60,490 bases of DNA. It comes from Acidobacteriota bacterium. GTDB lineage: Bacteria; Acidobacteriota; Vicinamibacteria; Vicinamibacterales; JAMQPK01. Within the stretch, counting starts at the first letter, position 1. The number at the start of each line of letters is the position of its first letter. Under the pieces are notes generated by a model. That model searched no databases, was not told the origin of the DNA, and saw only the letters and a list, made by a program, of their open reading frames with translations. Positions 8,387-59,802 of the stretch are shown here, piece by piece. Location of the stretch: contig JANNJO010000428.1 of assembly GCA_031395755.1 (NCBI GenBank), positions 1-60,490 of the forward strand, in the 5' to 3' direction. The translations under genes and the position numbers were made by a program.

Positions 8387-9784
8387 GTGCCGACACCAGC
8401 CGATCTTTTTCTCTCTCCGGATCTCACAGAAGCTCAGGCGCGCGCGTACCTCGAGTCGCTCGGCTTCCGCGATCCGAAAGCGTCAGACGACCACCTGCAG
8501 CGGATGGCCGACGATCCTGTCGTCCGCGAAGCGCTCGGCCGCCTCGCGCAGTTGCTGTTCCCCGCTCTGCTCGAATCGCCCGATCCCGACGCGGCCGTCG
8601 TAGGCCTGTCGCGGTACGTGGCGGCGCGCACCGGCCGCGCCATGTTTCTGGACTACCTGCGCGAGGATCCGCGCGCGCTGCACGTCCTGACGTACGTCAT
8701 GGGCGCCTCGCCGGCGCTCAGCGAAATCCTCATCCGGACTCCCGAGTACTTTCATTGGCTCGTCGCTCAAGTGGAGCGAAGCGCCCCCGATCGCCAGGAT
8801 CACGAGGAAGAGCTCGTCTCGGTGTTCGCGACGGTGGACGATTCCGTCGAGGCGCTCAATATCCTCCGGCGCTGGAAGCGGCGGGAGACGCTGCGCATCG
8901 GCACGCGCGAGCTGCTGCGGCGCGAGACGGTTCAGACCGTGGCCGCCCAGCTCTCGGATATCGCGTGCGTGGCGATCGATTTCGCGCTGGCCATCGTGAC
9001 GCGGCAGCTGCTCGACGCCGAAGGGCGCGACAAGGCGCCCGGCACGTTTGCGGTCATCGCGACCGGGCAGCTCGGGGCGCAGGAATTGAGCTACAGCTCC
9101 AGCGTCGATCTGCTCTATGTCTACGAGGCGGCTGGCGTGGACGGCGCAGACGCCGAGGCCGCGCACGCGTTCTTCGTGAAGGCGGGCTGCGATTTGACGG
9201 CTGCCCTCAGGGACGAGACCCATGAGGGGCACCTGTATCGCGTGGGCGTGCCGCCGTGGCCCCAGGCCGACGGATGGCTCAAGGCGTGCTCTGTCGAGGA
9301 GTATGGCGAGCACTTTGCGGGTTCCGATGATCCCGCCGAAAGAGGCACGCTGACGAGAGCACGCGCGGTTGCCGGCGACGCGGAGCTCGGCCGACGTTTC
9401 ACGGTGAGCAGTCAGACGTTCGTGTTCGGCGGTTCCCATCAGAGCGCCGCCGCCGCGGCTGGTGGGGTCCGGCTTGAGCCGGACCTCACTGACACCGATC
9501 GCGGAGCAGAGGACATCGAGCGCCTGACACAGGCCTTCCAACTACGTTACGGCGCCGCGCACGCGCCGCTTCGCTATGCGGGCACTCTCGCTACGCTCCA
9601 GGCGATGGGCAGAGCGGGGTTGATCGACGAAGCCGTCCGGCGCGAGCTGGATCATGCGTACGTGTTCCTGCGGTCGGCGGAGCACCGCCAGCAGCTCGGC
9701 CTGAAGGAAGATGTCGACAAGCCGCTCGCCGCCTCGCGCGATCGCGTCCGCGAGATCTGCCGGGCGATCGTCGATCGGCCATAG
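8387..9784 (+). CDS. glnE: glutamine-synthetase adenylyltransferase-like protein, single-module (half-length GlnE)
   Basis: 465 aa with GlnE-type N-terminal helices and one nucleotidyltransferase module (ATGQLGAQELSYSSSVDLLYVY). E. coli GlnE is about 946 aa with two modules. Confidence 0.7.
   Translation: MPTPADLFLSPDLTEAQARAYLESLGFRDPKASDDHLQRMADDPVVREALGRLAQLLFPALLESPDPDAAVVGLSRYVAARTGRAMFLDYLREDPRALHVLTYVMGASPALSEILIRTPEYFHWLVAQVERSAPDRQDHEEELVSVFATVDDSVEALNILRRWKRRETLRIGTRELLRRETVQTVAAQLSDIACVAIDFALAIVTRQLLDAEGRDKAPGTFAVIATGQLGAQELSYSSSVDLLYVYEAAGVDGADAEAAHAFFVKAGCDLTAALRDETHEGHLYRVGVPPWPQADGWLKACSVEEYGEHFAGSDDPAERGTLTRARAVAGDAELGRRFTVSSQTFVFGGSHQSAAAAAGGVRLEPDLTDTDRGAEDIERLTQAFQLRYGAAHAPLRYAGTLATLQAMGRAGLIDEAVRRELDHAYVFLRSAEHRQQLGLKEDVDKPLAASRDRVREICRAIVDRP
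9461..9485 (+). repeat. REP-like hairpin copy inside the glnE-like CDS
   Basis: GGTGGGGTCCGGCTTGAGCCGGACC. The stem is GGTCCGGC/GCCGGACC. Translated in frame as GGVRLEPDL. Confidence 0.85.
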
Positions 9785-9822: not shown

Positions 9823-9896
9823 GATGGCGGGACGGTCCCGATGGCGGGACGGATCCCGATGGTGGAACGGATCCCGATGGTGGGACGGATCCCGAT
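9823..9896. repeat. 18-bp tandem repeat (minisatellite), 4 full units plus a partial one
   Basis: Units GATGGCGGGACGG(A)TCCC at 9823, 9840, 9858 and 9876. The fifth unit (9894) runs into the REP hairpin. Intergenic. Confidence 0.9.
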
Positions 9897-9921
9897 GGTG
9901 GGGTCCGGCTTTAGCCGGACC
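9897..9921 (+). repeat. REP-like hairpin, intergenic copy
   Basis: GGTGGGGTCCGGCTTTAGCCGGACC, differing from the 9461 copy only in one loop base. Confidence 0.9.
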
Positions 9922-15511: not shown

Positions 15512-15666
15512 ACAGTCGGCAGTCGACAGTCGACAGTGATCAGTCTGAGTCGCCAGTCATCGCCTCAGTCGGGCAGTCGTGCCTCGCGACTCCGGACTGA
15601 GGCTTGTCGGACTGGGACTCTCGACTGCTGACTGGGACTGATGACCGACGACTGCCGACTAACGAC
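15512..15666. repeat. palindromic heptamer-word element (family 1, AGTCGNN / NNCGACT), locus A
   Basis: Fills the whole gap between the TGA at 15507-15509 and the convergent TAA at 15667-15669. The left half is built of CAGTC words and the right half of GACTG words. Perfect inverted repeats are 15514-15525/15649-15660 (12 bp) and 15563-15570/15595-15602 (8 bp). Confidence 0.9.
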
Positions 15667-18429: not shown

Positions 18430-19454
18430 TGGCAGGAAAATTAAAACTCGTTGTCCTTTACGATCGGTGGGAGCCTGAGGACGAAGCCTCCGGCTCGAAC
18501 GGCAAATCGCCGCTCGTCCGCACGCTCGACAAGAAGGAAGTCGAGGACGAGGTCGTCGACGCGCTCACCAAGCTCGGCCACGAGCCGGCGCTTCACCAGC
18601 TGGACGGCTCCCTGAAGAGCCTCCACGCGCTCGCCAAGCTCGACTGCGATCTCATCTTCAACCTCAGCGAATCGTTCGCGGGCAACGACACCGCCGACTA
18701 CAACATCGCGGCGTATCTCGAGCTCATCGGCAAGAACTTCACGGGCGCCGGCAGCCATGGGCTGATGCTCGCGCAGGACAAGAGCGTCGCCAAGAAGATT
18801 TTCGCGTTCCATGGCATCGCCACGCCCATCTTCGCGCGGTCGTTCCGCGGCCGCCTGGCGTTTTCCGACGAGCTCCAGTTTCCGGTCATCGTGAAGCCGA
18901 TGCGCGAGGACGGCTCGATTGGCATCGAATTCAAAGCCGTCGTGTCGTCCATCAAGGAGCTGATGGAGCGCATCGACTGGCTCCACGAGCAGTTCGACTC
19001 GCCAATTCTGATCGAGGAGTACGTCGAAGGACGCGAGATGTACGTCGGCGTGCTCGGCAACGAGACGCCCGAGGCCCTGCCGGTCATCGAGCTCGACTTG
19101 TCGAAGCTGCCGGAAGGCACGCCCAGGATCGCGGCGGCCGAAGTGAAGTGGGGGAAGGGCACGAAGGCCTACCGCGACACAAAATCGATCGTGCCGACCA
19201 ACCTGTCGGAGGAGACCGCGGGCCTTCTGCAGTCGACCGCCATCTCCGCGTACCAGGCGCTGGAGCTGCGCGATTACGGACGCGTCGACATGCGCCTGAA
19301 GCCGGACGGCACGGTCGCCGTCATCGAAGTGAATCCCAACCCCTGGCTCAACTCGCGCGCCGAGCTGGCGCAGGCGGCGCGAAAGGCGGGCCGCACGTAC
19401 AACCAGTTGATCGAAGAAATCGTCAGCATGGCCATGGCGAGATACTCGCGATGA
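18429..19454 (+). CDS. ATP-grasp ligase, D-alanine--D-alanine-ligase family
   Basis: 341 aa. The start overlaps the upstream stop (TGATG). ATP-grasp pattern (VIVKPMREDGSIGI, EEYVEGREM, RVDMRL...IEVNPNP). Confidence 0.85.
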   Translation: MAGKLKLVVLYDRWEPEDEASGSNGKSPLVRTLDKKEVEDEVVDALTKLGHEPALHQLDGSLKSLHALAKLDCDLIFNLSESFAGNDTADYNIAAYLELIGKNFTGAGSHGLMLAQDKSVAKKIFAFHGIATPIFARSFRGRLAFSDELQFPVIVKPMREDGSIGIEFKAVVSSIKELMERIDWLHEQFDSPILIEEYVEGREMYVGVLGNETPEALPVIELDLSKLPEGTPRIAAAEVKWGKGTKAYRDTKSIVPTNLSEETAGLLQSTAISAYQALELRDYGRVDMRLKPDGTVAVIEVNPNPWLNSRAELAQAARKAGRTYNQLIEEIVSMAMARYSR

Positions 19455-31035: not shown

Positions 31036-32270
31036 ATCTTGCGTACGTCTCTCTCGGGGCGCTGGTCATCGCGATTCTGGTCAGCTGCTTTACCGAGCTG
31101 AACGTCGGGATTCTCGCCCTGGCCCTCGCCTGGATCGTCGGCGTGTATGTGGGCGGCATGCCGCTGAACGAGGTCATCAGCGGCTTCCCGGTCTCGCTGT
31201 TTCTGACGCTCGCCGGCGTGACGCTGCTGTTCAGTCAGGCGCAGTTGAACGGCACGCTCGACCGCCTGGCGCACCGCGCCGTGCGCCTGTGCCGCGGCAA
31301 CGCCGGGCTCATTCCGATCGCGTTTTTCATTCTCGGCTGCGCGCTCGCGTCGATGGGGCCAGGAAACGTATCGACGGCCGCGCTCCTCGCGCCGATGGCG
31401 ATGGCGGCGGCAGGACGCGCCGGCATACCGGCGTTTCTGATGATCATCATGGTTGGCAACGGTGCGCAGGCAGGATCCTTGTCGCCCTTTGCGCCGACCG
31501 GCGTCATCGTCAACGGCCTGATGGAAAAGATCGGTCTGGATGGCTATGAATGGTTTACGTACTGGACAAACCTGGTGGCGCACGCGGTCGTCGCCTTCGG
31601 AGGGTACGCCGTCTTCGGCGGGCTGAAACTCTTCAAGGCCGGGTCGATTGGCGCCGTCGAGCAGGCGCCGGAGGATGTACGGTTCGACAGGAACAACGTC
31701 ATCACGATGGTGGTGATCGCCGCGCTGCTCACCGGGGTGCTGTTTTTCGGGGTCAACGTCGGGATGGGCGCGTTTGCCGGCGCGGTGATTCTGGCCGTTC
31801 TGGGCGCCGCCGACCACAGGGATGCGGTCAAAAACATGCCGTGGTCGGTCATCGTGATGATGAGCGGCGTCACGGTGCTGATTGCGCTGATGGAGCGGAC
31901 CGGCGGGCTCGATCTGTTTACCGCGGCGCTGGCGCGGCTCGCGACGCCGGGCACCATTACGGGCGTGATCGCCTTCGTGACGGGGTTGATCTCGGTCTAC
32001 AGCAGCACGTCCGGCGTGGTGCTGCCCGCCTTTCTCCCCACGATTCCCGGCCTGATCGAGCGGCTGGGGGGCGGCGATCCACTGGCGATTGCGGCGTCGA
32101 TGAACATCGGCGCACATCTGGTCGACCTCTCGCCGCTCTCCACGACCGGCGCCCTCTGTATCGCAGCCGTGGCCTCCGGAGAAAACATCCGGAGCGTCTT
32201 CAACAAGCTTCTCGCCTGGGGCCTGTCGATGACCATCGTCGGCGCGATTCTCTGCTGGGTGTTTTTCTGA
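31032..32270 (+). CDS. anion permease of the ArsB/NhaD/CitT-type superfamily (dicarboxylate/hydroxyacid carrier-like)
   Basis: 412 aa, about 12 TM. The ATGA overlap with the oxidase stop suggests co-expression. The substrate is not inferable. Confidence 0.7.
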   Translation: MNLAYVSLGALVIAILVSCFTELNVGILALALAWIVGVYVGGMPLNEVISGFPVSLFLTLAGVTLLFSQAQLNGTLDRLAHRAVRLCRGNAGLIPIAFFILGCALASMGPGNVSTAALLAPMAMAAAGRAGIPAFLMIIMVGNGAQAGSLSPFAPTGVIVNGLMEKIGLDGYEWFTYWTNLVAHAVVAFGGYAVFGGLKLFKAGSIGAVEQAPEDVRFDRNNVITMVVIAALLTGVLFFGVNVGMGAFAGAVILAVLGAADHRDAVKNMPWSVIVMMSGVTVLIALMERTGGLDLFTAALARLATPGTITGVIAFVTGLISVYSSTSGVVLPAFLPTIPGLIERLGGGDPLAIAASMNIGAHLVDLSPLSTTGALCIAAVASGENIRSVFNKLLAWGLSMTIVGAILCWVFF

Positions 32271-32275
32271 CTGTG

Positions 32276-33352
32276 ATGAAAACGATGAGAGCGGTTGGTC
32301 TTTACAAATATCTTCCTGTCGAAGATCCGGAAAGTCTGCTCGACCTCGACATTCCCAAGCCTGAAGCCGCGGGGCGAGACCTGCTGGTGCGCGTGCGCGC
32401 GGTGTCGGTGAATCCGGTCGATACCAAAGTGCGTGCGCCGAAAGATAAAGTCGAAGCAGCGCCGCGCATCCTCGGTTGGGACGCCGCGGGCACAGTCGAG
32501 GCCGCCGGCGATCAGGTGACGCTGTTTCAACCCGGTGATGAGGTGTATTACGCCGGAAGCATCACCCGGCCTGGGTCGAACAGCGAGTATCACCTCGTCG
32601 ATGAACGCATCGCCGGGCGTAAGCCGCGCAATCTGTCGTTCGAGGACGCAGCGGCGATGCCGCTGACGACGATCACGGCGTACGAAGCGCTTTTCGATCG
32701 CATGGGCGTGGTCCGGCTAAAGCCGGACGCCACCAAGCAGGCAGCCAAGGAGCAGGTGGGGTCTGCCTTCAGGCGGACCGACGCGTCCATCCTGATCATC
32801 GGCGGGGCAGGTGGCGTGGGCTCCATCGCGATTCAGCTCGCGAAGAAGCTGGCCGGGCTGCGGGTCATCGCAACCGCGTCACGCAAGGAAAGCGGCGAGT
32901 GGTGCCGGTCTCTGGGCGCCGACGACATCATCAACCATCATCATGCGTTTCAGGAGGAGTTCAAGATGGCCGGCCTGCCCGAGGTCGACTACATCCTGTG
33001 CCTCAACAGCACTGAGAAGCACATCCAGAACATGGCTGACGTCATCAAGCCGCAAGGCAGGCTCTGCGCCATCGTCGAGACCAAAGGGGGTGTGCCGGTC
33101 AACATCAACCCGTTTCAGCGGAAGAGCGTCGCATTCTGCTGGGAGCTGATGTTTACGCGCTCGATATTCCAGACCCCCGACATGCAGGCGCAGCACGACC
33201 TGCTCAACGAAACGGCGGGCCTGTTCGAGAACGGCACGCTGCGCACAACCAGGACGACGGGCTTTGGAGAAATGAACGCGGAAAATCTCAGGAAGGCCCA
33301 CGCCGAGATCGAGCGCGGCGACATGATTGGGAAGCTCACGCTCAGCAACTAA
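32276..33352 (+). CDS. zinc-type alcohol dehydrogenase / quinone oxidoreductase family protein
   Basis: The C-terminal 358 aa of ORF 31550-33352, starting at the in-frame ATG 32276 (MKTMRAVG...). MDR pattern ILGWDAAGTV, PGDEVYYAG, and Rossmann motif IIGGAGGVGS. Confidence 0.9.
   Translation: MKTMRAVGLYKYLPVEDPESLLDLDIPKPEAAGRDLLVRVRAVSVNPVDTKVRAPKDKVEAAPRILGWDAAGTVEAAGDQVTLFQPGDEVYYAGSITRPGSNSEYHLVDERIAGRKPRNLSFEDAAAMPLTTITAYEALFDRMGVVRLKPDATKQAAKEQVGSAFRRTDASILIIGGAGGVGSIAIQLAKKLAGLRVIATASRKESGEWCRSLGADDIINHHHAFQEEFKMAGLPEVDYILCLNSTEKHIQNMADVIKPQGRLCAIVETKGGVPVNINPFQRKSVAFCWELMFTRSIFQTPDMQAQHDLLNETAGLFENGTLRTTRTTGFGEMNAENLRKAHAEIERGDMIGKLTLSN
32710..32734 (-). repeat. REP-like hairpin, reverse orientation, inside the ADH CDS
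   Basis: GGTCCGGCTAAAGCCGGACGCCACC is the reverse complement of the REP consensus with one substitution. Translated as VVRLKPDAT. Confidence 0.85.
32755..32779 (+). repeat. REP-like hairpin variant inside the ADH CDS
   Basis: GGTGGGGTCTGCCTTCAGGCGGACC. The stem GGTCTGCC/GGCGGACC keeps its pairing through a compensatory G/C swap plus one G:T wobble. Confidence 0.8.
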
Positions 33353-33365
33353 GAATTGAACAGAA

Positions 33366-33408
33366 GACCAGGAGATCAGGAGTTTTGAACGATTTGTCTC
33401 CTGAACTC
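33366..33408. repeat. octamer word element (family 2), locus I
   Basis: CAGGAGAT CAGGAGTT (33369-33384), then the 7-bp stem TCAGGAG/CTCCTGA (33376-33382/33398-33404). Shares CTCCTGAACTC with 57539-57549. Confidence 0.85.
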
Positions 33409-33409
33409 T

Positions 33410-33776
33410 TTCCTTGCTCCCCATTCCAAGCGCGCACGACACGATGGCCGCGCCTTGCCACAGTCGTGGCCGGCTGGAAGATTGGCTTCGCGCGGCGGCG
33501 TACAGCGTCAGCAGATAGAACAACCCGAACAGGAGCTCGGTGCGCTGGGTGAGGTAGTTCACCGCCTCGGTGTTCAATGGATGGACCGCCCAGACAAGCG
33601 CAACGTCAACGTGCGTCGCACGAAGCCAAGAGCAGCAGGGCCGAACCGAGATGGATCGCGATGTTCGTGACGTGATAGCCGGTCACGTCGAGATCGCCGA
33701 ACGCGAAATTGAGCGCGAACGTGAACCCGACCACAGGCCGGCCCGCCAGCGGAGAGTTAACGCGATCGGATGTCAC
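33410..33776 (-). pseudogene. remnant of a TMTC/PMT-like membrane glycosyltransferase (N-terminal ~120 aa, frameshifted and truncated)
   Basis: Two reverse frames read ...NSPLAGRPVVGFTFALNFAFGDLDVTGYHVTNIAIHLGSALLLLAS* and ...VALVWAVHPLNTEAVNYLTQRTELLFGLFYLLTLYAA...GMGSKE. They join with a 1-nt frameshift near 33600-33620. No first TM and no downstream domains are present. Confidence 0.5.
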
Positions 33777-35423: not shown

Positions 35424-35458
35424 TGACTGACGACCGACGACTGCCGACCGACGACTGT
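35424..35458. repeat. family-1 heptamer array (five units), locus C
   Basis: TGACTGA CGACCGA CGACTGC CGACCGA CGACTGT lies between the TGA at 35417-35419 and the convergent stop at 35460-35462. The 17-nt block 35432-35448 is identical to 15643-15659. Confidence 0.9.
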
Positions 35459-37894: not shown

Positions 37895-37983
37895 GCCGGA
37901 GTGGTGAAACTGGCAGACGCGCGGGACTCAAAATCCCGTGGGGTTCACTCCCCGTGAGGGTTCGATTCCCTCCTCCGGCACCA
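37895..37983 (+). tRNA. tRNA-Leu (anticodon CAA), CCA encoded
   Basis: Acceptor stem GCCGGAG/CTCCGGC, anticodon stem CGGGA/TCCCG with loop CTCAAAA, long variable arm (class II), T-arm GGTTCGATTCC, discriminator A plus CCA. TATAAT lies at 37878-37883, 11 nt upstream. Confidence 0.9.
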
Positions 37984-42853: not shown

Positions 42854-43516
42854 GTGAAATTGGCGATCAAACGCAAACAACTCAGCGACCAGGTCTCCGA
42901 GCTCACGACCAATCGCCTCTCGGTGTACCTCCGATGCCTCAACTCTCTGGATGCGGCAGGAGTGAAGACCGTGTCGTCGCAGTCGCTGGCGCACCAGTTC
43001 CACCTGAACGCGGCGCAGATTCGGAAGGACCTGGCGAATTTCGGCGAGTTCGGCGTCCGCGGGGTCGGCTACTACGTCAAGGATCTGCAGCAGCATCTTC
43101 GGCAGATCCTGGGACTCGAGCGACGGCTGAAGGTCGCGATACTCGGCGCGGGGAACCTCGGCCTCGCCCTCGCGGACTATCCGGGCTTCCGTCAGGAAGG
43201 ATTCCAGATGGTCGCGTTATTCGACGCGCTCTCGTCGAAGGTCGGGCAGCGTTCGCGGGCGGGCGTGCCGATCTTCGACATCAAGGATCTCCGGAAGATC
43301 GCGGCGCGCGAGAAAATCGCCATCGCCGTCATTGCTGTCCCCGCCGACTCGGCCCAGCACGTCGTCAATCAGGTGGTCGCCGCCGGCATCAAAGCGATCC
43401 TGAACTTTTCACCAGGAACGCTGCGAGCCCCCGACGATGTGAAATTGAAGAGCGTCGATCTGACCGTCTCGCTCGAAAGCTTGTCGTTCTACCTTGCGCA
43501 GGAAGAGGAAGAGTAG
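42854..43516 (+). CDS. rex: redox-sensing transcriptional repressor Rex
   Basis: 220 aa. Winged-helix N-terminus (RLSVYLRCL...SSQSLA) and a Rossmann NADH-binding motif (VAILGAGNLG). Confidence 0.9.
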   Translation: MKLAIKRKQLSDQVSELTTNRLSVYLRCLNSLDAAGVKTVSSQSLAHQFHLNAAQIRKDLANFGEFGVRGVGYYVKDLQQHLRQILGLERRLKVAILGAGNLGLALADYPGFRQEGFQMVALFDALSSKVGQRSRAGVPIFDIKDLRKIAAREKIAIAVIAVPADSAQHVVNQVVAAGIKAILNFSPGTLRAPDDVKLKSVDLTVSLESLSFYLAQEEEE

Positions 43517-43555
43517 GGATTAGGGATTGGGGATTAGGGATTAGGGATTAGATTA
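43514..43555 (+). repeat. TAGGGAT heptamer array (family 3, telomere-like, G-tract rich), locus F left arm
   Basis: TAGGGAT TAGGGAT TGGGGAT TAGGGAT TAGGGAT TAGATTA. It begins with the rex TAG stop and ends at the ATG of ORF 43555. Confidence 0.9.
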
Positions 43556-44136: not shown

Positions 44137-44221
44137 GTACCGACGGAGACTCTCGACTGCTGACTGGGACTACTGACTGCTGACTGAGACTGACGACTAA
44201 CGACTGCTGACTGACGACTCC
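44093..44221. repeat. family-1 heptamer-word element with 22-bp terminal inverted repeats (MITE-like), locus D
   Basis: GGAGTCGGCAGTCGGCAGTCGT (44093-44114) matches the reverse complement of 44200-44221 (GGAGTCGTCAGTCAGCAGTCGT) at 20/22. The 24-nt block 44148-44171 is identical to 15616-15639. Confidence 0.85.
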
Positions 44222-58475: not shown

Positions 58476-59753
<1,278 letters not shown>

Positions 59754-59759
<6 letters not shown>

Positions 59760-59802
59760 CAGTCGTCAGTCATCAGTCGTCAGTCGTCAGTCGTCAGTCG
59801 CA
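59754..59802. repeat. family-1 heptamer array, seven units AGTC(A/G)TC, locus E
   Basis: AGTCATC AGTCGTC AGTCATC AGTCGTC AGTCGTC AGTCGTC AGTCGCA. It contains the gltA start codon (59757-59759) and the yacG stop (59787-59789). Confidence 0.95.

Follow-up and report, generated by a model that had tools for sequence, protein, structure and literature searches.

Results

A pair of translated hairpins in an oxidoreductase gene

Within the 60,490-nucleotide stretch of DNA analyzed here, hereafter the window, an inverted-repeat search identified two 25-nt hairpin units arranged head-to-head around a 20-nt spacer at 32710-32779, inside an open reading frame (ORF) for an oxidoreductase (Table 1). The sequence and coordinates that the initial annotation gave for this pair are confirmed directly in the window sequence. 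The left arm (32710-32734, GGTCCGGCTAAAGCCGGACGCCACC) is 80% complementary to the right arm (32755-32779, GGTGGGGTCTGCCTTCAGGCGGACC; 20 of 25 positions), and each folds on itself, the left as GTCCGGC-TAAA-GCCGGAC and the right as GGTCTGCC-TTCA-GGCGGACC with one G-T pair. In the orthologous locus L001, which comes from an independent assembly, the right unit is a perfect hairpin (GGTCCGCC-TTCA-GGCGGACC) and the left arm is identical to that of the window. The 91-nt stretch folded at this locus has a predicted energy of -49.7 kcal/mol, compared with -34.8 +/- 3.2 kcal/mol for shuffled sequences (z = -4.6; 0 of 200 shuffles as good). In the predicted fold each arm pairs with itself, and only the GGTGG and CCACC heads pair with one another across the pair. 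The segment is translated as G144-VVRLKPDATKQAAKEQVGSAFRRT-D169 in ORF 32276-33352, and ILIIGGAGGVGS begins three residues later.

An Rfam scan of the whole window returned a tRNA at 37895-37980 alone, with no match at the hairpin locus. A promoter and terminator scan of 32200-33500 found nothing at the hairpins and no terminator-like tail, ruling out an intrinsic terminator.

Table 1. Features of the hairpin locus and of related repeats in the window
Feature	Position	Strand	Description
Host gene	32276..33352 (stop codon included)	+	358-aa MDR-superfamily oxidoreductase, NCBIfam TIGR02817 adh_fam_1
Left REP unit	32710..32734	-	GGTGGCGTCCGGCTTTAGCCGGACC on - strand; major stem subtype GGC...GCC; peptide VVRLKPDAT
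Spacer	32735..32754	.	20 nt between the two heads; peptide KQAAKEQ
Right REP unit	32755..32779	+	GGTGGGGTCTGCCTTCAGGCGGACC; minor stem subtype GCC...GGC, one G-T pair; peptide VGSAFRRT
Extra DNA, one probable in-frame delimitation	32711..32770	+	Codons V146-F165, 60 nt; from alignments with P0004 (L002) and P0008 (L005)
Second intragenic unit	9461..9485	+	GGTGGGGTCCGGCTTGAGCCGGACC; peptide GGVRLEPD in GlnE-like ORF 8387-9784
Intergenic unit copy	9897..9921	+	A short way downstream of GlnE-like ORF 8387-9784
Tandem array	9823..9902	+	18 nt x 4.5, GATGGTGGGACGGATCCC; units with the REP head only; abuts copy 9897..9921

The host protein matches TIGR02817 with 435.8 bits (residues 5-357; profile positions 1-334 of 336), exceeding the curated NCBIfam cut-off of 284.05 over the full length of the profile. 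It also matches PDB entry 4dvj (E = 1.7e-97), with a Foldseek TM-score of 0.87 between the host model and that structure. Comparison with the L001 orthologue gives a dN/dS of 0.10 (dS 0.52, pS 0.375), and the CitMHS-ADH gene order is kept in orthologous contigs; the host gene remains under purifying selection. The initial annotation had called the enzyme a Zn-dependent dehydrogenase, and the TIGR02817 score bears out the MDR family, with "Zn-dependent" serving as a family label only. TIGR02817 falls within the quinone-oxidoreductase-like MDR branch and, in our own reading of the AVSVNPVDTKVR region, the host protein appears to lack the classical catalytic-zinc Cys/His pattern.

The AlphaFold model of the host protein has a mean pLDDT of 85.5 and falls below 50 only at residues 149-162, between two confident domains. 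The model supports the view that the insert is a low-confidence, flexible loop joining the two domains, in keeping with the surface loop proposed at the outset.

The segment is an insertion with diffuse boundaries

The segment is missing from syntenic orthologues of 339 aa (P0004, P0008, P0010, and P0014; 79 to 88% identity) and from the solved structures 4dvj and 3fbg, as expected for the lineage-specific insertion that the initial annotation had postulated. The loop from FDRM to IIGGAGG is 29 residues long here, compared with 11 to 16 residues in insert-free close relatives and outgroups and 17 to 21 in a few others; the linker lengths given in the initial annotation, about 27 residues against about 10, were thus roughly right. 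The longer loops of 17 to 21 residues (P0003, P0005, P0006, P0007, and L124) were considered as possible insert remnants and rejected, because their extra residues come after the native (P)RT and the REP insert before it, and because the corresponding DNA has no hairpin.

The gain is in frame, as proposed, with the ORF intact, but it is not the clean addition of 70 nt that had been assumed. The net gain over empty-site orthologues is 51 to 60 nt; relative to P0004 it is 51 nt, with 15 nt replaced by 66 nt. Since the native loop likewise starts Arg-(Arg)-Thr, the boundary of the extra DNA is ambiguous by about 10 nt, and the extent given in Table 1 is one that the alignments suggest. Aligning filled with empty sites revealed neither a target-site duplication at the junctions nor a clean 70-nt insertion.

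The units belong to a dispersed, REP-like family

The family unit, GGTGG[C/G]GTCCG[G/C]CTTNAG[G/C]CGGACC, spans 25 nt, with five unpaired nucleotides (GGTGG) as its head and a stem of 7 to 8 bp that ends in a 4-nt loop; the left unit of the pair fits this pattern exactly. A 23-nt unit pattern allowing up to three mismatches has five matches in the window, representing four units, where 0.01 are expected, and no shuffled sequence reached five. A window match at 19290-19307 (two mismatches) was regarded as chance or degenerate and was rejected as a family unit. Beyond the window, the exact family pattern occurs in at least 114 stretches, nearly all from Vicinamibacterales or other Acidobacteriota metagenome-assembled genomes (MAGs), with at least 136 exact copies in the loci fetched; among the loci listed, the MAG CAWGAS01 alone has at least 25 exact copies. 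Four loci from near orthologues (L003, L005, L007, and L008; 7 to 21 kb each) contain no unit copy, so that the density of the family is not the same across all relatives. A full-text literature search returned no description of this REP-like family or of its signature peptides.

At its two free stem positions the unit has G-C in 122 of 136 copies, C-G in 13, and a non-complementary combination in one, indicating compensatory change. By a heuristic composition test, 109 of 125 non-edge units lie outside ORFs with coding composition and 16 (about 13%) lie inside. The family thus shares three features with REP sequences: a short palindrome with a stem-loop, a mainly extragenic location, and a stem kept by compensatory changes. 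Head-to-head pairs combine the major and minor stem subtypes in 13 of 21 cases, although the minor subtype makes up only 11% of units, and spacers among family pairs range from 4 to 86 nt. The REP- or BIME-like character suggested earlier holds insofar as the units are dispersed, mostly extragenic, and form heterotypic head-to-head pairs. The inverted pair is not the main arrangement, however; direct tandem arrays are the commonest among the sampled loci and outnumber head-to-head dimers.

Units recur in frame in other genes

All 16 units that lie within ORFs with coding character on both sides are in stop-free frames. Outside the window, 13 of 14 intragenic units fall in ORFs with Pfam domains, at least 6 of those within a domain envelope. 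In-frame copies occur in genes for QueG, a class-III aminotransferase, TrmFO/GIDA, an HI0933-like flavoprotein, a CitMHS transporter, an SNF2 helicase, and others; the SNF2 helicase of L120 contains an in-frame tandem array of units. In the window itself, the peptide GGVRLEPD of the GlnE-like ORF is common only to its closest orthologues (P0121 to P0124), at a site that is a hypervariable linker with unrelated sequence in the remaining orthologues. The earlier suggestion that REP dispersal remodels proteins in this lineage is borne out by the intragenic fraction of the family and by this second case in the window.

The insert is shared, divergent, and partly lost among relatives

A sister lineage at 90% identity carries the segment with identical junctions. 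In L001, which has these junctions, the arms match at 49 of 50 nt, while the gene-wide dS is 0.52. Aligned with that of L001, the spacer shows 8 differences in 21 positions plus a 3-nt indel; it looks unconstrained, because it has diverged about as much as synonymous sites across the gene (pS 0.375). In L123 the left arm is kept with its stem intact, 33 nt have been lost in frame, and the right arm is gone. On a bootstrapped tree, the insert-bearing trio of P0001, P0002, and L123 is nested among insert-free lineages, with support of 95 for (P0003,(P0004,trio)) and 100 for the grouping of L123 with P0002. At the corresponding codon, clade B orthologues (70 to 77% identity) also contain a related insert. 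The insertion event may be much older than the ancestor of P0001 and P0002, with repeated losses.

Discussion

We consider it very probable that the 70-nt feature is a composite of two head-to-head REP-type units, BIME- or REPIN-like and of a Vicinamibacterales family, that was inserted into an MDR oxidoreductase and is tolerated there. The composite would have joined the coding sequence in the common ancestor of the source genome and its closest sampled relatives, at the loop through which the catalytic domain connects with Rossmann-domain strand beta-A. Its tolerance may reflect a length gain divisible by three (net +51 to +60 nt), a unit free of stop codons in the reading frames concerned, and a host loop that is probably solvent-exposed and varies naturally in length. 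Read-through would then yield the complete enzyme plus 17 to 20 residues of additional flexible loop, and the host protein is presumably made and active. Thereafter, with the gene under purifying selection, the spacer would have drifted neutrally while the hairpin arms stayed nearly intact, and the L123 lineage would have dropped part of the insert through an in-frame deletion. The composite could have arrived by RAYT-like transposition, or by recombination or template switching at a site already resembling half a stem.

The near identity of the arms raises the question of whether the hairpins are merely tolerated passengers. They could be kept by nucleotide-level selection as an RNA or DNA element within the ORF, possibly as a ribosome or RNA-polymerase pause at the domain boundary, an RNase processing or protection site, or a site for a REP-recognizing protein. 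Compared with L001, the window has a single change among the 50 nt of the arms, against 8 of 21 plus an indel in the spacer; with about 15.6 synonymous arm sites and a pS of 0.375, about 5.9 synonymous differences are expected where one is seen (Poisson P of about 0.02), and that sole change, C to T, preserves a G-U pair. The intact left stem of L123 and the right arm of clade-B L125, which still matches the consensus at 24 of 25 positions, point the same way. However, the statistics come from essentially one lineage pair, and gene conversion from other genomic copies would give the same pattern without function. The loss of the right arm in L123, the decayed hairpins of clade-B L006, L007, and L127 (in which the peptide is retained), and the lack of a terminator-like tail or Rfam match at the locus also argue against such selection, which we regard as unlikely. 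A related and similarly improbable possibility is that the translated hairpins have a dual use, the arms being under selection for nucleic-acid structure or by a REP-binding or -cutting protein while the peptide is a neutral loop. The same codon would then have been hit twice or the insert held for very long, and in one clade it would have become a fixed-length, constrained segment.

The number of insertion events bears on the age of the composite. A single insertion before clades A and B split, at one shared codon lying between G-[IV]-(P) and R-T, would agree with the shared position and frame (…SAFRRT) in the two clades. It would have been followed by scarless or near-scarless losses in at least five clade-A lineages and by fixation and constraint in clade B, where all 12 full-length sequences are equal in loop length and the insert is 65% identical, compared with 82.5% over the remainder of the protein. 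L123 provides a direct example of loss through in-frame deletion, and Y1-transposase elements (IS200/IS605 family) excise precisely, which would also favor one ancient event. Parsimony on the bootstrapped tree, though, prefers two gains over one gain with at least five losses; insert-free loops (GIPRTPAPDGKSV) align scar-free with outgroup loops (GIPRSQGSSGKSL); and the arms of P0001 and P0002 match the present consensus perfectly, while most clade-B arms are decayed. We take a single ancient origin seriously but doubt it. That the segment is instead a native ancestral loop resembling the repeat, or that the repeat family was born from the host gene, is improbable in the extreme. The insert-free loop does start Arg-Arg-Thr or Pro-Arg-Thr (CGG CGC ACG), like the 3' half of the right stem (GGCGGACC), but both arms fit a 25-nt pattern found at many unrelated loci and genomes, with a chance expectation of 0.01 matches per window, and the segment is missing from outgroups and most close relatives. 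There is likewise next to no probability of an assembly artefact or pseudogene. The window is a metagenome-assembled contig, in which repeats can misjoin, but the same insert and junctions occur in independent assemblies (Logan SRR8561390, the source of L001, and a 35,087-nt ENA contig encoding the same protein) and a JGI metagenome (L123) contains a deletion derivative; these assemblies, together with the intact ORF, a dN/dS of 0.10, and synteny on both sides, rule it out.

An inserted and tolerated REP composite can be set beside several known systems. E. coli BIMEs are mosaics of the REP subtypes Y and Z in alternating orientation; they are extragenic and bind IHF or gyrase. The pair described here is likewise built from oppositely oriented units of two distinct REP subtypes, the minor of which occurs mainly in pairs of this kind, but it differs in being translated. 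REPINs likewise consist of two inverted REPs with a short spacer, form a recurrent composite, and are described as extragenic (Bertels & Rainey 2011, PMC3116915; PMC3337134). They are characterized by a single long hairpin and by a cognate single-copy RAYT transposase gene that REPs flank. The inverted order, 20-nt spacer, and recurrence of our composite are like those of REPINs, whereas its arms are of different stem subtypes and only 80% complementary, and family pair spacers span 4 to 86 nt. No RAYT gene could be linked to the composite; a search by motif regular expression, which is a weak test, gave no credible RAYT-like ORF in about 1.02 Mb of fetched sequence. MITEs such as ERIC, BOX, and the cyanobacterial elements are small non-autonomous repeats able to make translational fusions within genes (PMC10969869). 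Their defining marks are terminal inverted repeats and target-site duplications, and they derive from insertion sequences (ISs); the hairpin pair, with neither a duplication nor a parent IS seen, falls outside that definition.

The closest published parallels are intragenic. GTAG/CGTC-tagged REPs are 20 to 40 bp long and mostly intergenic, with a minority wholly within ORFs of known proteins (Di Nocera, De Gregorio & Rocco 2013, PMC3733652). More than half of these intragenic inserts are dimers or groups encoding 20 to 30 residues; head-to-head is a common dimer arrangement, and the larger clusters code for 43 to 82 residues (PMC3733652). Our family shares the short palindromes and the intragenic minority, and the SNF2 tandem array of L120 is comparable to the larger clusters. 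It does not belong to the tagged superfamilies, however. Its pattern is GGTGG[C/G]GTCCGGCTTNAGCCGGACC with a stem of G+C only, whereas CGTC families have A/T pairs at the first stem positions, which are absent here, and a CCA-like tail (PMC3733652). The GTAG tag is absent, and CGTC, present in 92 of 136 units, overlaps the stem (GG-CGTC-CGG) instead of forming an unpaired tag. The unpaired GGTGG end, CCACC on the other strand, is loosely like the CCA tail of CGTC families. Among the loci sampled here, moreover, direct tandem arrays outnumber the head-to-head dimers. That paper describes no such family for Acidobacteria, mentioning the phylum only for TIR-flanked tyrosine transposases (PMC3733652).

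Rickettsia palindromic elements (RPEs) are, as recounted in PMC10969869 and PMC3733652, palindromes found in frame in unrelated housekeeping genes, with a peptide judged compatible with fold and function (Ogata et al. 2000, 2002). The initial annotation had drawn this comparison, and it fits in that both are in-frame palindromic repeats adding a tolerated peptide to unrelated genes, a likeness of mode of action and not of sequence membership. On those accounts, RPE-1 is about 100 to 150 bp long and belongs to an alphaproteobacterial endosymbiont lineage, whereas the repeat here is a pair of 25-nt units (70 nt) in free-living soil Acidobacteria; the G+C content also differs, and most copies here are intergenic.

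Intragenic REP dimers encoding 20 to 30 residues are thus already established (Di Nocera 2013; Rickettsia RPEs), and our finding overturns nothing, since in-frame REP and RPE insertions are known in other phyla. What is new is the setting, a repeat family and a phylum with no description of in-frame insertion in the literature searched. Vicinamibacterales are known mostly from MAGs, and the family leaves peptide signatures in their annotated proteins (VRL[KQE]PDAT, SGFSRT, GSAFRRT, and WGPALAGP) that help annotators tell real insertions from spurious ORFs and explain length variation in otherwise conserved enzymes. The host enzyme provides a dated series of states at one site, comprising the empty site, the intact pair, the half-deleted pair, and the decayed pair with retained peptide, and so offers a way to follow small palindromic repeats as they enter proteins, persist there, and are absorbed. 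If the dual-use reading were true, one could trace how a selfish repeat became protein-coding sequence in a phylum abundant in soil.

Hairpin pair in a dehydrogenase reading frame

The initial annotation had described two REP-like hairpins facing each other in frame, just ahead of the Rossmann motif of a Zn-dependent dehydrogenase, and sequence, fold and translation confirm the arrangement, coordinates, frame and site. A repeat search finds two 25-nt arms with 80% complementarity, separated by 20 nt. The left arm alone forms the hairpin GTCCGGC/TAAA/GCCGGAC and the right arm alone forms GGTCTGCC/TTCA/GGCGGACC, with one G-T pair. RNA folding of a 91-nt stretch yields these two local hairpins plus a short CCACC/GGTGG pairing of the heads (-49.7 kcal/mol; z = -4.6 versus dinucleotide shuffles). 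A promoter and terminator scan showed no terminator-like tail at the hairpins, and they match no Rfam family. The translated segment reads G144-VVRLKPDATKQAAKEQVGSAFRRT-D169 and ends 3 residues ahead of ILIIGGAGGVGS.

Repeat units and other features of the window
Feature	Position	Detail
GlnE-like gene	8387-9784	PF03710 + PF08335
Intragenic REP unit	9461-9485	GGVRLEPD
Tandem array	9823-9902	18 nt x 4.5, GATGGTGGGACGGATCCC
Intergenic REP unit	9897-9921	
Heptamer array	15512-15558	CGACTGA/TCAGTCG
Spurious ORF	31550-33352	600 aa
Dehydrogenase ORF	32276-33352	starts MKTMRAV...
REP pair	32710-32779	GGTCCGGCTAAAGCCGGACGCCACC + 20-nt spacer + GGTGGGGTCTGCCTTCAGGCGGACC
Heptamer array	35425-35457	CGACTGA/TCAGTCG
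tRNA gene	37895-37980 (+)	sole Rfam match in window
Separate short array	43514-43551	TAGGGAT x5.4
Heptamer array	44142-44219	CGACTGA/TCAGTCG
Heptamer array	59752-59800	CGACTGA/TCAGTCG

Many long spurious ORFs overlap real genes in other frames on this high-G+C contig, one of them running into the dehydrogenase frame, so a long ORF cannot by itself be taken as a gene here. Against NCBIfam TIGR02817 the host protein reaches 435.8 bits, above the cut-off of 284. Among solved structures it matches 4dvj (E = 1.7e-97) and 3fbg, each alignment being gapped by ~16 residues precisely at the insert. An AlphaFold model built with a 40-sequence alignment has a mean pLDDT of 85.5, a pTM of 0.87 and a TM of 0.87 to 4dvj. 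Its pLDDT falls below 50 only at residues 149-162 of the window protein, the middle of the insert, which lie between the catalytic domain's last helix and Rossmann strand beta-A, as expected of the surface loop that had been proposed.

The insertion is lineage specific

Orthologous contigs keep the gene neighbors (a CitMHS transporter upstream; TPR, cupin and ECF-sigma genes downstream), indicating that proteins with and without the insert are compared as true orthologues. The closest named relatives are "Vicinamibacterales bacterium" MAGs. Among 40 aligned homologues, the loop from FDRM to IIGGAGG spans 29 residues in the window protein, 30 in P0002 and 29-35 in a separate orthologue group, clade B (P0009 and P0011-P0023; 70-77% identity). 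It spans 17-21 residues in P0003, P0005, P0006 and P0007, and 11-16 in the outgroups and in P0004, P0008, P0010 and P0014, which are 79-88% identical to the window protein. Absence of the segment from these close orthologues and from 4dvj and 3fbg bears out the suggested lineage-specific insertion.

The window has 66 nt where L002, the contig encoding P0004, has 15 nt (ARRVE). The net gain is 51 nt, or 60 nt if a native Arg-Arg-Thr is counted as retained, both multiples of three. The claim that a 70-nt element entered without breaking the frame therefore stands for the frame but not for a clean 70-nt addition. Filled and empty orthologue DNA revealed no target-site duplication at the junctions either, and the boundaries of the insert are ambiguous by ~10 nt.

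In L001, the independently assembled contig encoding P0002, both arms are present with junctions identical to those of the window. Conservation is far higher in the arms than in the spacer: 49/50 arm nucleotides match, whereas 8/21 aligned spacer positions differ and the L001 spacer is 3 nt longer. L123, a JGI metagenome contig and sister to P0002 (bootstrap 100), keeps the left arm but has an in-frame loss of 33 nt that takes out the spacer together with the right arm's 5' half. The shared insert implies entry before these three lineages split, and the insert is now decaying by in-frame deletion in L123. Throughout the time it has been carried, the host gene has been under purifying selection (dS 0.52 and dN/dS 0.10, window versus L001; dN/dS 0.09, L001 versus L123). 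By our own calculation for one lineage pair, the arms show 1 synonymous difference where ~5.9 are expected (P about 0.02), which only hints that the hairpins are under selection or have been converted by other copies.

One or two gains

The clade B insert occupies the same codon and frame (...SAFRRT) as that of the window. At the nucleotide level, its hairpins have largely decayed in L006, L007 and L127; the right arm of L125 matches 24/25 consensus positions. In a bootstrapped NJ tree, clade B (support 92) is separate from the trio of window, P0002 and L123, which is nested among insert-free lineages ((P0003,(P0004,trio)), support 95); a single gain, requiring at least 5 scarless losses, is less parsimonious than two. 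Because L123 demonstrates that loss can occur, we favor two gains only slightly and regard a single gain with losses as rather unlikely. The clade B insert has a fixed length in 12/12 full-length sequences and a pairwise identity of 65% versus 82.5% for the remaining protein, and the AlphaFold prediction points to two short paired strands at the base of the insert and disorder at its tip. Its behavior is thus that of a protein segment under moderate constraint.

The repeat family

A 23-nt unit pattern with up to 3 mismatches matches the window 5 times (4 units) versus 0.01 expected. Searching GGTGGSGTCCGSCTTNAGSCGGACC in one genome per species returned at least 114 stretches with the family pattern, almost all from Vicinamibacterales/Acidobacteriota MAGs; among the matches listed, one MAG supplied 25 exact copies. 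Exact copies also occur in MAGs labeled "uncultured Bifidobacterium sp." or "Bifidobacteriaceae" (L026, L027, L035, L048, L049, L060, L070, L071, L076 [CAZOAZ01...] and L087), and these labels look wrong.

The retrieved loci hold 136 exact units, or 238 at up to 3 mismatches. At two stem positions the pattern allows either G or C; 122 units have G-C there, 13 have C-G and 1 is noncomplementary, a compensatory exchange that marks selection for the stem. Units at up to 3 mismatches lying within 100 nt of each other form 58 direct (head-to-tail) pairs with a modal gap of 11 nt, 21 head-to-head pairs (gap 4-86 nt) and 10 tail-to-tail pairs (4-89 nt). The minor stem subtype (GCC...GGC) makes up only 11% of units, yet 13/21 head-to-head pairs combine it with the major subtype (GGC...GCC), just as the dehydrogenase insert does. 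E. coli BIMEs are mosaic arrangements of REP units, and these heterotypic pairs, which uphold the BIME-like character first proposed, resemble their logic more than that of a REPIN with two identical arms.

Copies inside genes

We called a unit intragenic when it was crossed by an open frame that extended 50 codons or more in both directions and had GC3 > GC1 > GC2 in each flank. By this composition test, 16/125 non-edge units lie within coding sequence. If a coding density near 90% is assumed, random harmless insertions would be mostly genic; the family is thus heavily underrepresented in genes, though not barred from them. Pfam identified real genes in 13/14 intragenic cases outside the window. 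In at least 6, the unit or array lies within or splits a domain: QueG_DUF1730 (L009), Aminotran_3 (L016), GIDA/TrmFO (L066), HI0933_like (L093), CitMHS (L118) and Helicase_C of an SNF2 helicase (L120, a tandem array encoding ...VRLKPDATDIRPDTTDIRPDTTDIKPDTT...). The helicase gene (L120:711-3446, minus strand) carries full and head-only units in frame, adding ~60 residues (GVRLKPDATGIKPDTIDAQVRLKPDATDIRPDTTDIRPDTTDIKPDTTDIRPDATDIKPDTTE). In L029 a heterotypic head-to-head pair is translated in frame (VVRLKPDAT...GSAFRRT), as in the dehydrogenase. The translated frames are the stop-free ones: VRL[KQE]PDAT, SGFSRT and WGPALAGP.

The intragenic unit in the GlnE-like gene falls in a hypervariable linker, and its peptide is present only in the closest orthologues. 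This protein has one nucleotidyltransferase module and only 465 aa, unlike the ~950-aa bifunctional GlnE, and the short form is kept across many acidobacterial metagenome proteins. Two more distant orthologues (P0174 and P0182; alignment columns ~400-425) have the repeat-like RLRSPLDFARGDPEHVEG in frame in the same linker; the likely source of this peptide is a different acidobacterial family of palindromic repeats. Each copy of the 18-nt array begins with the REP head GGTGGG, and the array continues straight into the intergenic unit. In-frame GGPRPMGGVRPIGGVRLEPD in the orthologue P0124 looks like its translated equivalent.

Comparison with known systems

For Rickettsia, a review (PMC10969869) credits Ogata (2000, 2002) with describing palindromic repeats in frame within genes. 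Di Nocera et al. 2013 (PMC3733652) reported that some GTAG and CGTC REPs, variable in number, fall wholly inside ORFs encoding known proteins and that over half of these inserts are dimers or groups encoding 20-30 residues; in the same paper, CGTC-type REPs are reported to lack a dedicated transposase. A motif search of ~1 Mb of retrieved sequence showed no RAYT-like ORF. The dehydrogenase insert works like these intragenic REPs, but the acidobacterial family does not fit their tag definitions: it has no GTAG, and its CGTC overlaps a stem made up solely of G+C. Full-text literature searches found no published description of the family or its signature peptides. The reading of the dehydrogenase insert as an in-frame REP/BIME-like element is supported overall. 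In-frame REP insertion is already known, and the acidobacterial family is a further case of the same kind; its coding units in Pfam-identified genes support the proposal that proteins of this lineage are being remodelled by it.
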